Part shown: positions 12,029 to 13,312 of the stretch, piece after piece
Layout of the letters: every line of letters begins with the position of its first letter
How positions within the stretch are numbered: position 1 is the stretch's first letter
Assembly: GCF_021054785.1 (NCBI RefSeq)
Contig: NZ_CP088239.1
Location: 630,001 to 662,000, forward strand
Length of the DNA stretch: 32,000 bases
Source of the DNA: Tannockella kyphosi
GTDB taxonomy: Bacteria; Bacillota_I; Bacilli_A; Erysipelotrichales; Coprobacillaceae
Reading direction: 5' to 3'
Translations under genes and position numbers: made by a program
The notes under the pieces: model-generated
The model's database searches: none
Told to the model about the DNA's origin: nothing
Seen by the model: the letters and a program-made list of their open reading frames with translations, nothing else

Positions 12029-13312
12029 CTATATTTGATATGTATTTTCTTGATGAATAGAGTCTGGTTCTTGTTTTATTTTTGGAAAAGATGCTTCAGG
12101 AAGAAGATCGTAATAATCATGTTTAGTGATATCAAACTTAGATACTTCTAATGGTTTATTTCCTCTTGTAAACAAGTAGGCTCTATCAATAGGCATTTCT
12201 AAAATTTCTTGAATAGGCTTATTTGCTTTGATGGCACAAAATTCTGCAGTAGTTACATCTTGACCACCTAAATACAAACAGTTATCACAATTATTAATAA
12301 TGGTAATGGCTTTTTCTTTTCCATAAAGAGCATTTAATTGAGTAATACTTTGTAAAATAATACTGACATATATTTCTCTAGAACGAATAACGGAGATAAT
12401 ATTATCAAAATCAGGAATAATTGTATTTGTAGCAAAATCATCAAAGATAAAACGGACTGGTATATCTAAACGACTAGATGGATTGTTATCTGCTATTGTA
12501 CATAATGATTGTAATGCTTGTTTATAAAACAAACTTGCTAGTTTGTCCATAGAACGATCAGTATCACTGATTGTTAAGAAAATAGCAGTTTTTGTAGTAG
12601 ATAGTTCTTCAAAACTAATCTTTTTATTATTGTGATAAAGTGTACAAATATCATTGTTAGTTAATTCATTTATTTTTTCAAATAAAATACCAATAATACT
12701 TTGATTCATTTTTTCTGCTTGACGATTGTTCTTAAACATCTTGTATTGTTTTACAGCAAAGCTTTTTGGATTTTCTATTTCTAATTGAAATATTAGATTA
12801 TCAAAAACAGAAGTTTGTATAATAGTAAGTAATTCATAGATAGATTCTAGATTATGTTCTTCTTTTGGTAAACATTCTAGTGTGTAAGATATTAAACAAG
12901 TTAAATACATTCTTGCAGCTAAGTCCCAGAAAGGGTCTTTTGAATTTTCTTGAGGAACAAGAGTACTTGAGATAGTTAAGATATCTTGACAATTGTATTG
13001 TTTTGTTTCGTTATTGTAACCAATAAAATCAAATGGGTTATACCCATGTGACTTTGTTATGTTTTTATAATCAATGATTTTTATTTGATATCCTTTTTCT
13101 TTTAATAAAGGACCAACTTGTTTTATTAAGTTACCTTTTGTATCTGCAATAATAAGACTTTCATTACATTGCATAATATTAGGTTTTACATAATTTCTTG
13201 TTTTACCAGCACCAGAAGGACCAATAATTAAGTCATTATTATTTATACCTGTTTCATAAGTATTGTTATTTTGGTATGTGTTGTTTGCTAGTATGCGATA
13301 ATTTGTTTTCAT
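12029..13312 (-). CDS. VirD4/TraG-type (type IV coupling protein family) P-loop NTPase lacking the N-terminal membrane anchor
   Basis: Walker A is LIIGPSGAGKTRNYVKPN, followed by SLIIADTKGNL, GYNPFDFI and DPFWDLAARMYL. Walker B is VRFIFDDFATN. RSREIYVSIILQSITQLNALYGKEKA...YLGG matches the conserved T4CP C-terminal block. I chose the start at ATG 13312 (MKTNYRIL) because of the GGAGAAC RBS. The track's longer ORF would overlap the ClpP-like gene by 134 nt. Confidence 0.8.
   Translation of the reverse strand: MKTNYRILANNTYQNNNTYETGINNNDLIIGPSGAGKTRNYVKPNIMQCNESLIIADTKGNLIKQVGPLLKEKGYQIKIIDYKNITKSHGYNPFDFIGYNNETKQYNCQDILTISSTLVPQENSKDPFWDLAARMYLTCLISYTLECLPKEEHNLESIYELLTIIQTSVFDNLIFQLEIENPKSFAVKQYKMFKNNRQAEKMNQSIIGILFEKINELTNNDICTLYHNNKKISFEELSTTKTAIFLTISDTDRSMDKLASLFYKQALQSLCTIADNNPSSRLDIPVRFIFDDFATNTIIPDFDNIISVIRSREIYVSIILQSITQLNALYGKEKAITIINNCDNCLYLGGQDVTTAEFCAIKANKPIQEILEMPIDRAYLFTRGNKPLEVSKFDITKHDYYDLLPEASFPKIKQEPDSIHQENTYQI

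Follow-up and report, generated by a model that had tools for sequence, protein, structure and literature searches.

What does a type IV coupling protein (T4CP) do at a locus that provides it with neither a membrane anchor nor a secretion channel? The question is raised by a 32,000-nt stretch of the Tannockella kyphosi genome (RefSeq assembly GCF_021054785.1, contig NZ_CP088239.1, positions 630,001 to 662,000), hereafter the window, in whose coordinates the cassette genes are given. A gene at 12029–13312 was described in a first-pass annotation as an orphan T4CP, without transmembrane (TM) domain and without secretion system, whose translocase module had been repurposed. Its product was found to belong to a large, widespread and conserved anchor-less lineage that is linked to a ClpP protease. 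Five genes on one strand made up the cassette:

13894–14283, minus strand: orf129, a stand-alone C-terminal domain of a partner protein, X (hmmsearch E 5.4e-6)
13323–13904, minus strand: ClpP paralog, 193 aa, catalytic triad intact (Pfam CLP_protease, PF00574, 1.5e-50)
12029–13312, minus strand: TM-less T4CP (VirD4/TrwB-type) ATPase, 427 aa, nucleotide-binding and all-alpha domains only
11085–12017, minus strand: orf310, N-terminal and middle domains of X (hidden Markov model (HMM) E 1.5e-9)
9679–11031, minus strand: orf450, an ORFan that closes the cassette in the same orientation, a member by position only

The order was thus X C-domain, ClpP, T4CP, X N-terminal and middle domains, orf450, with gaps or overlaps of at most 11 nt between adjacent genes, except for 53 nt from orf310 to orf450.

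An anchor-less lineage of coupling proteins

The T4CP gene starts with an ATG at 13312, preceded by a Shine-Dalgarno sequence (GGAGAA, 7 nt before) and by the ClpP stop codon (10 nt before), and its reading frame is intact. A longer open reading frame (ORF), extended to a TTG at 13456, shares 134 nt with the ClpP gene; its Kyte-Doolittle mean over 19 residues reaches 1.77, a value stemming from an I/L-rich stretch with four lysines in what is another frame of clpP. From the ATG the same mean peaks at 1.23, indicating no TM segment (TM calls throughout are hydropathy-based). M1 is nearly invariant among 62 homologues, which share a start ~30 residues ahead of Walker A, as in the window protein, where Walker A begins at residue 31. 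The start with its ribosome-binding site (RBS), the short lead before Walker A and the absence of the N-terminal helices, all claimed in the first-pass annotation, were borne out. A frameshifted gene with a TM-bearing fragment upstream was ruled out: the upstream genes encode ClpP and a soluble protein of 129 aa.

The same annotation had held that the nucleotide-binding core of T4CPs was kept, and this was confirmed by motifs, families and fold. GPSGAGKT (residues 31–38), DPFWD, IFDDF and RSREIYVSIILQS...YG were all present. The protein matched Pfam T4SS-DNA_transf (PF02534) at 6.6e-40, the alignment covering positions 45–376 of a profile of 468, as well as TraG-D_C (PF12696, 3e-20) and TrwB_AAD_bind (PF10412, 4.7e-16), and scored 326.4 bits (cut-off 250; profile 15–369 of 442) against the NCBIfam equivalog NF045973, “VirD4-like conjugal transfer protein, CD1115 family”. 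An AlphaFold2 model (pLDDT 91.2) showed a TrwB-like fold, a RecA-like nucleotide-binding domain with an inserted all-alpha domain. Its top Foldseek matches were Cagbeta (8dol, E 5.6e-18, TM-score 0.73) and TrwBdeltaN70 (1e9s, E 3.4e-14, TM-score 0.66), with HerA structures among the weaker ones; Cagbeta was also the only sequence match in the PDB (E 1.6e-6). Assignment to another P-loop family was ruled out by the Pfam, NCBIfam and fold matches. The window T4CP corresponds in nature to the engineered, TM-deleted TrwBdeltaN70 of R388. TrwBdeltaN70 and Cagbeta/Cag5 of H. pylori are, however, fragments of membrane-anchored components of type IV secretion systems (T4SS), and share 14–17% identity with it.

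More than 5,000 relatives were obtained from a search of 5.8 billion proteins. The best 120 of them (55–70% identity) were nearly all 400–450 aa long, a few reaching 572 aa. Eighty genomic loci were then compared, 40 encoding proteins 48–60% identical to the window T4CP (the short clade) and 40 encoding proteins 32–38% identical (the conjugative group); the latter was supplemented by two annotated plasmids, pMG2200 of Enterococcus faecalis and pSXP-169_2 of C. perfringens. The two groups differed as follows:

Walker A position: residues 29–47 in the short clade, residues 133–151 in the conjugative group
Predicted TM segments ahead of Walker A: none in the short clade, usually two (one in a few loci) in the conjugative group
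Protein length: ~400–450 aa in the short clade, ~600 aa in the conjugative group

In an unrooted maximum-likelihood tree of 79 cores (quick search, LG+G4), the short proteins were set apart from the rest by a branch with SH-aLRT 100, and the sole seeming exception, L030, proved to be a mis-called start. Because T4CPs in general carry a membrane anchor, the direction of change, which the unrooted tree leaves undirected, is taken to be loss of the anchor in the short clade and not its gain. The short clade lacks the first ~140 residues, with their two TM helices and GSA.W motif; a loop of ~30 residues and the C-terminal tail are missing as well, and a small insertion has been gained. The Walker B motif reads DDF in the short clade, against DEF in the conjugative clade and in Cagbeta, so that the catalytic Glu is Asp clade-wide; D291 and D292 (12436–12441) are invariant in 62 short-clade sequences.

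Among known systems, a close counterpart is the CD1115 family of coupling proteins, such as those of the two plasmids. These proteins belong to the same NF045973 family and share with the window protein the nucleotide-binding and all-alpha core, Walker A, the RSRE/Q motifs and the TraG-D_C region, at 32–38% identity. The features by which they differ from it are those lost or changed across the short clade, and their genes sit between PcfB/DUF3801 and VirB6-PrgI-VirB4, whereas the window gene sits between those of ClpP and X. Comparison of the sequences suggests that the short clade descends from CD1115-type conjugative coupling proteins; the anchor-less state is a lineage trait and not a truncation.

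A T4CP gene that falls short of its conjugative relatives at both ends could also be a decaying, functionless remnant from an ICE (integrative and conjugative element), debris of which lies elsewhere in this genome. However, the frame and RBS are intact, and 76 columns, including Walker A, DDF and RSRE, are invariant in 62 short-clade proteins of 55–69% identity, which indicates purifying selection. The clade is moreover well supported, with more than 100 clusters at 55–70% identity that are mostly ~400–450 aa long, and its operon partners are conserved. Decay is hardly credible as an explanation.

ClpP and protein X as conserved partners

The description of the T4CP as an orphan did not hold, ClpP and the fast-evolving protein X (here orf129 and orf310) being its two conserved partners. 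A ClpP gene lay directly beside the T4CP gene at 35 of the 40 short-clade loci and at none of the 40 conjugative loci, mostly immediately upstream; it was downstream at three loci, and two of the 35 were partial. The window ClpP scored under the NCBIfam equivalog cut-offs for housekeeping ClpP and was 35% identical to the housekeeping ClpP of the same genome (at 1,911,741), indicating a paralog. The catalytic Ser (GMAASMG), His (MIHDP) and Asp (DTYF) were conserved in at least 90% of 28 T4CP-linked ClpPs, which also retained the N-terminal region and carried a clade-specific change, MIHDP for MIHQP. Over 27 loci the pairwise identities of ClpP and T4CP were correlated (Mantel r 0.847; none of 2000 permutations gave a value as high), indicating that the two are inherited as a unit.

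At one short-clade locus (L015, 166–6632), a tandem short-clade T4CP in a single protein of 832 aa lay behind a 1311-aa AAA+/Peptidase_M41 (FtsH-like) protein, and no ClpP was present. A different ATP-dependent protease thus holds the position of ClpP there.

Full-length X, of ~490 aa, was encoded just upstream of ClpP at seven loci (L008–L013 and L024). Split forms of ~330 plus ~110 aa or ~125 plus ~115 aa occurred elsewhere, fused and split forms alike lying beside ClpP and T4CP. The kinship of these ORFs was seen by profile methods and not by BLAST. When a library of 1.84 billion proteins was searched with a profile of nine X sequences, 218 representatives were recovered, none with a Pfam family. 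Against a 78-sequence X profile that did not contain it, orf129 aligned with positions 325–437 of 443 at the E value listed above, and hhalign placed its residues 15–124 on X 367–480 with 60.6% probability. The match of orf310 was obtained with the independent nine-sequence HMM; in hhalign (99.5%, residues 4–287 on X 11–321) the target alignment itself contained orf310. A word-based search for orf310 homologues returned only one cluster, 99% identical.

No family was assigned to orf129 in Pfam, NCBIfam or PHROG, or to orf310, orf450 and X in Pfam, NCBIfam, PHROGs and PADLOC, and by hydropathy no TM segment was predicted in orf129, orf310 or orf450. No relation of orf450 to X or to the neighbour clusters was detected, and its low-confidence Atlas model gave no usable match. 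X is a helical protein in which the N-domain is optional. For the confident model of its full-length form (pLDDT 89) Foldseek found no match in the PDB, and a PDB profile search and an Atlas search for X were also empty. With VIA-align, the first ~130 residues of X gave Z scores of 5.4–6.7 to restriction-endonuclease-like folds, below the level taken as proof of kinship, together with non-specific helical bundles. This may be taken as a hint of a restriction-endonuclease-like N-domain, not as an assignment.

The X C-domain abuts or overlaps the start of ClpP at most loci. In the window, orf129 overlaps it by 11 nt, an arrangement indicative of translational coupling. X C-domains preceding ClpP contain a hydrophobic-x-P-hydrophobic motif (LLVEPF, ILPFARM), and orf129 has IYIYPFINL. 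Proteins of 131 aa (the c4 cluster) encoded just upstream of ClpP at nine loci (L025–L030, L036, L039 and L043) end in ..LPFD or ..PFD, and a small protein at L012 (c26) ends in ..DAGFGL; such ends resemble a short docking tail. A ClpX-style Gly-Phe tail was considered for orf129 and ruled out, the tail being absent.

The cassette resembles ClpXP, ClpCP and ClpAP in that a ring ATPase gene lies beside the gene of a ClpP with an intact Ser-His-Asp triad. It differs from them in that the ATPase is of the FtsK-HerA/T4CP class and not AAA+, that the ClpP is a diverged paralog, and that an IGF-type docking loop was not identified. The T4CP hexamer might itself be a direct non-AAA+ unfoldase, docking like ClpX on the ClpP tetradecamer and threading proteins into it. 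The tight, co-diverging pairing of T4CP and ClpP agrees with this, as do the preserved triad and N-terminal region of ClpP and the substitution of another ATP-dependent protease at L015; T4CPs, besides, move proteins as well as DNA. On the other hand, no IGF/IGL-type docking loop is conserved in the T4CP alignment. Moreover, the gene coupled to the ClpP start is that of the X C-domain, not of the T4CP, and a DDF Walker B is unlike that of a processive motor. We consider direct unfolding of this kind improbable.

Conjugation genes, distribution and neighbours

With the conjugation proteins annotated on the two plasmids as tblastn queries, matches were counted within ±10 kb of the T4CP genes:

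VirB4: 0 of 37 short-clade loci, 33 of 40 conjugative loci
VirB6: 0 of 37 and 36 of 40
PrgI: 0 of 37 and 31 of 40
PcfB/DUF3801: 0 of 37 and 35 of 40
Relaxase: 1 of 37 and 36 of 40

None of these genes was found in the window (630–662 kb), the nearest T4SS markers lying at genome positions 673–745 kb. The claim of a T4CP without a secretion system thus holds at the level of the locus only: in the genome, a pMG2200/CD1115-type ICE occupies ~673,000–745,000, 11–83 kb past the window end, and encodes PcfB, VirB6, PrgI, VirB4, a peptidoglycan hydrolase, TopoIII and a relaxase. The TM-bearing T4CP gene of this ICE is in three pieces (688292–688828, 698254–698904 and 708814–709539), parted by two related inserts of ~9.5–10 kb. 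Each insert has an opening ORF of ~600 aa with a large-serine-recombinase-like N-terminus and a relaxase-like ORF of 485 aa, and the two share a 2,058-bp repeat of 97.7% identity. A third such insert splits TopoIII. The inserts look like mobilisable elements targeting conjugation genes.

A soluble T4CP recruited in trans to a T4SS, for instance that of the resident ICE, would still be a coupling protein for conjugation or mobilisation. “T4CP lacking TMD (transmembrane domain)” is a recognised subfamily, functional in conjugation, as with TraJ of pIP501, which is recruited by the small membrane protein TraI and works with a T4SS (PMC7434980). The genome does contain VirB4, VirB6, PrgI and a relaxase in an ICE whose own T4CP is in pieces, and the NCBIfam name of the window protein is that of a conjugal transfer protein. 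Against this stand the marker counts at the short-clade loci, the loss of the C-terminal tail and the GSA.W region in the clade, and the identity of 33–58% to the ICE T4CP, which extends over separate fragments only. TraJ, compared here by description only, is a Gram-positive TMD-less T4CP inside a tra operon, whereas the window locus has no T4SS and, orf129, orf310 and orf450 being without TM segments, no small membrane partner; its conserved partner is a protease. No short-clade member was found in 72,556 plasmid records or 50,697 phage records, in which the best identities were 35.0% and 37.5%. A role in conjugation is very unlikely on these grounds, and the NF045973 equivalog name is probably an over-annotation for the short clade.

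Absence of the TM domain, as TraJ illustrates, is in itself insufficient to call the protein repurposed. The term remains the best reading because the TM-less homologues, in the phylogeny that the first-pass annotation had proposed as a check, form a single clade that is off the conjugation loci and tied to ClpP.

Among 81 genomes of the host family, a short-clade member was found in this genome only, the two congeners being without it; nor are the genes flanking the cassette conserved in those two. The G+C content of the cassette (25–30%) is not clearly foreign. Neighbours at other short-clade loci included McrBC-like proteins, an SF1 (superfamily 1) helicase-Sel1 protein, UvrD/GajB-like helicases, type III methylases, RNase H, DnaB_C-like ATPases, DUF5688 proteins and serine recombinases, while several loci lay among housekeeping genes (RecG, PTS, acyl-ACP thioesterase). 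Across the loci, BLAST detected no recurring neighbour cluster beyond T4CP and ClpP, and integrase, replication or relaxase partners likewise did not recur.

Directly upstream of T4CP-ClpP-X at one locus (L020, 474–9690) were a 1260-aa Sel1 and double-AAA protein, an McrBC-like protein, a 588-aa protein of unknown kind and an SF1 helicase with Sel1 repeats, a setting like that of a defence island. At three others (L022, L024 at 9983–14432, and L035), T4CPs with a C-terminal extension of ~300 aa (no Pfam family) were followed by a UvrD-like (GajB-like) helicase.

Such neighbours raise the alternative that the cassette belongs to a mobile element so far unrecognised and assists DNA maintenance or replication there, for example as leading-region or replication-associated genes, with a protein of the element as the ClpP substrate. 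The DnaB_C-like ATPases, RNase H, DUF5688 proteins, serine recombinases and UvrD-like helicases would suit such a module, as would the patchy distribution. Yet only X, ClpP and T4CP recur, without any integrase, replication or relaxase partner, several loci lie between housekeeping genes, and the clade is missing from the plasmid and phage collections. This explanation is unlikely, though less so than a role in conjugation.

Between the cassette and the TetR gene, ~460 nt (14284–14741) are non-coding. The only terminator-like hairpin there (14653–14669), readable on both strands, probably ends the TetR transcript. In this AT-rich DNA a scan for promoters and terminators, with 34 sites where 43.6 were expected, was not informative and gave no convincing promoter.

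A proposed cytosolic ATPase-protease module

X, ClpP and T4CP form a trio that is conserved, co-diverges and is under selective constraint, the ATPase and the protease both having kept their catalytic motifs; the parts by which a T4CP is tied to membrane, channel and relaxosome accessory factors are all lost. The lineage, its inheritance with ClpP and its separation from T4SS genes are consistent with the three working together in the cytosol as a single ATPase-protease module that has nothing to do with DNA transfer, a reading that we somewhat favour over its negation. In such a module the T4CP ring would keep the job of its family, the ATP-dependent recognition of a DNA or DNA-protein substrate, and would control or feed a dedicated ClpP barrel instead of passing the substrate to a secretion channel, with X acting as a sensor or adaptor. 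That the ring itself feeds ClpP, one form of this scheme, is doubtful.

The likeliest biological role would be conflict with mobile DNA, that is, with incoming conjugative relaxase-DNA complexes or phage. Such a role is favoured because the distribution is patchy, as for horizontally moved genes, and the neighbours are variable and include helicase, nuclease and restriction types, and the FtsH-like protease in place of ClpP at L015 points the same way; this evidence is modest, and a defence or anti-plasmid function is put forward tentatively. A partial parallel is offered by the Sir2-HerA and DUF4297-HerA defence systems, in which a soluble ring ATPase, likewise of the FtsK-HerA superfamily, is genetically paired with an enzymatic effector, an NADase or a nuclease there and a ClpP protease in the window.

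Several observations weigh against the module or its role in defence. ClpP is missing from three short-clade loci with adequate flanks (L007, L015 and L031). An IGF loop like that of ClpX is not apparent in the T4CP, and orf129 has an internal P-F motif only, without the Gly-Phe/PFD tail seen in some X C-domain proteins, so that physical coupling to ClpP stands as a proposal. With DDF as its Walker B, the T4CP may hydrolyse ATP slowly, as a switch rather than a motor. Defence-type genes are a minority of the 113 neighbours in a raw count, and the window flanks are ordinary, with a solute symporter and a TetR/reductase pair. PADLOC-DB 2.0.0 models matched none of T4CP, ClpP, orf310 and orf450, and orf129 matched RT_IV weakly (E 1.2e-4).

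In its boldest form, the proposal amounts to an immune system or an ATP-dependent proteolytic machine of a new class, in which a conjugation-derived FtsK/HerA-type ring would sense foreign DNA-protein complexes and either feed the attached protein to a private ClpP or activate it; candidate triggers would be relaxase-capped single-stranded DNA entering by conjugation, or phage genome ends. This seems a long shot. TMD-less T4CPs are already known, but in a literature search we found no description of a T4CP lineage that is off the T4SS and linked to ClpP and X, and this lineage is apparently undescribed.

The definition of T4CPs rests on their work at the mouth of the type IV secretion channel. 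That a large and conserved lineage should do without anchor and channel and be inherited with a protease indicates that the T4CP motor has a second, cytosolic life. To our knowledge, ClpP is served only by AAA+ unfoldases; if the ring did drive ClpP, that rule would be widened, and this would be the first ClpP with a non-AAA+ motor. Through the NCBI label “conjugal transfer protein”, probably wrong for the short clade, conjugative elements could be overcounted in genomes and metagenomes from the gut. Were incoming complexes of DNA and protein the target of the module, gut Firmicutes would have in it a new means of policing conjugation or phage infection.

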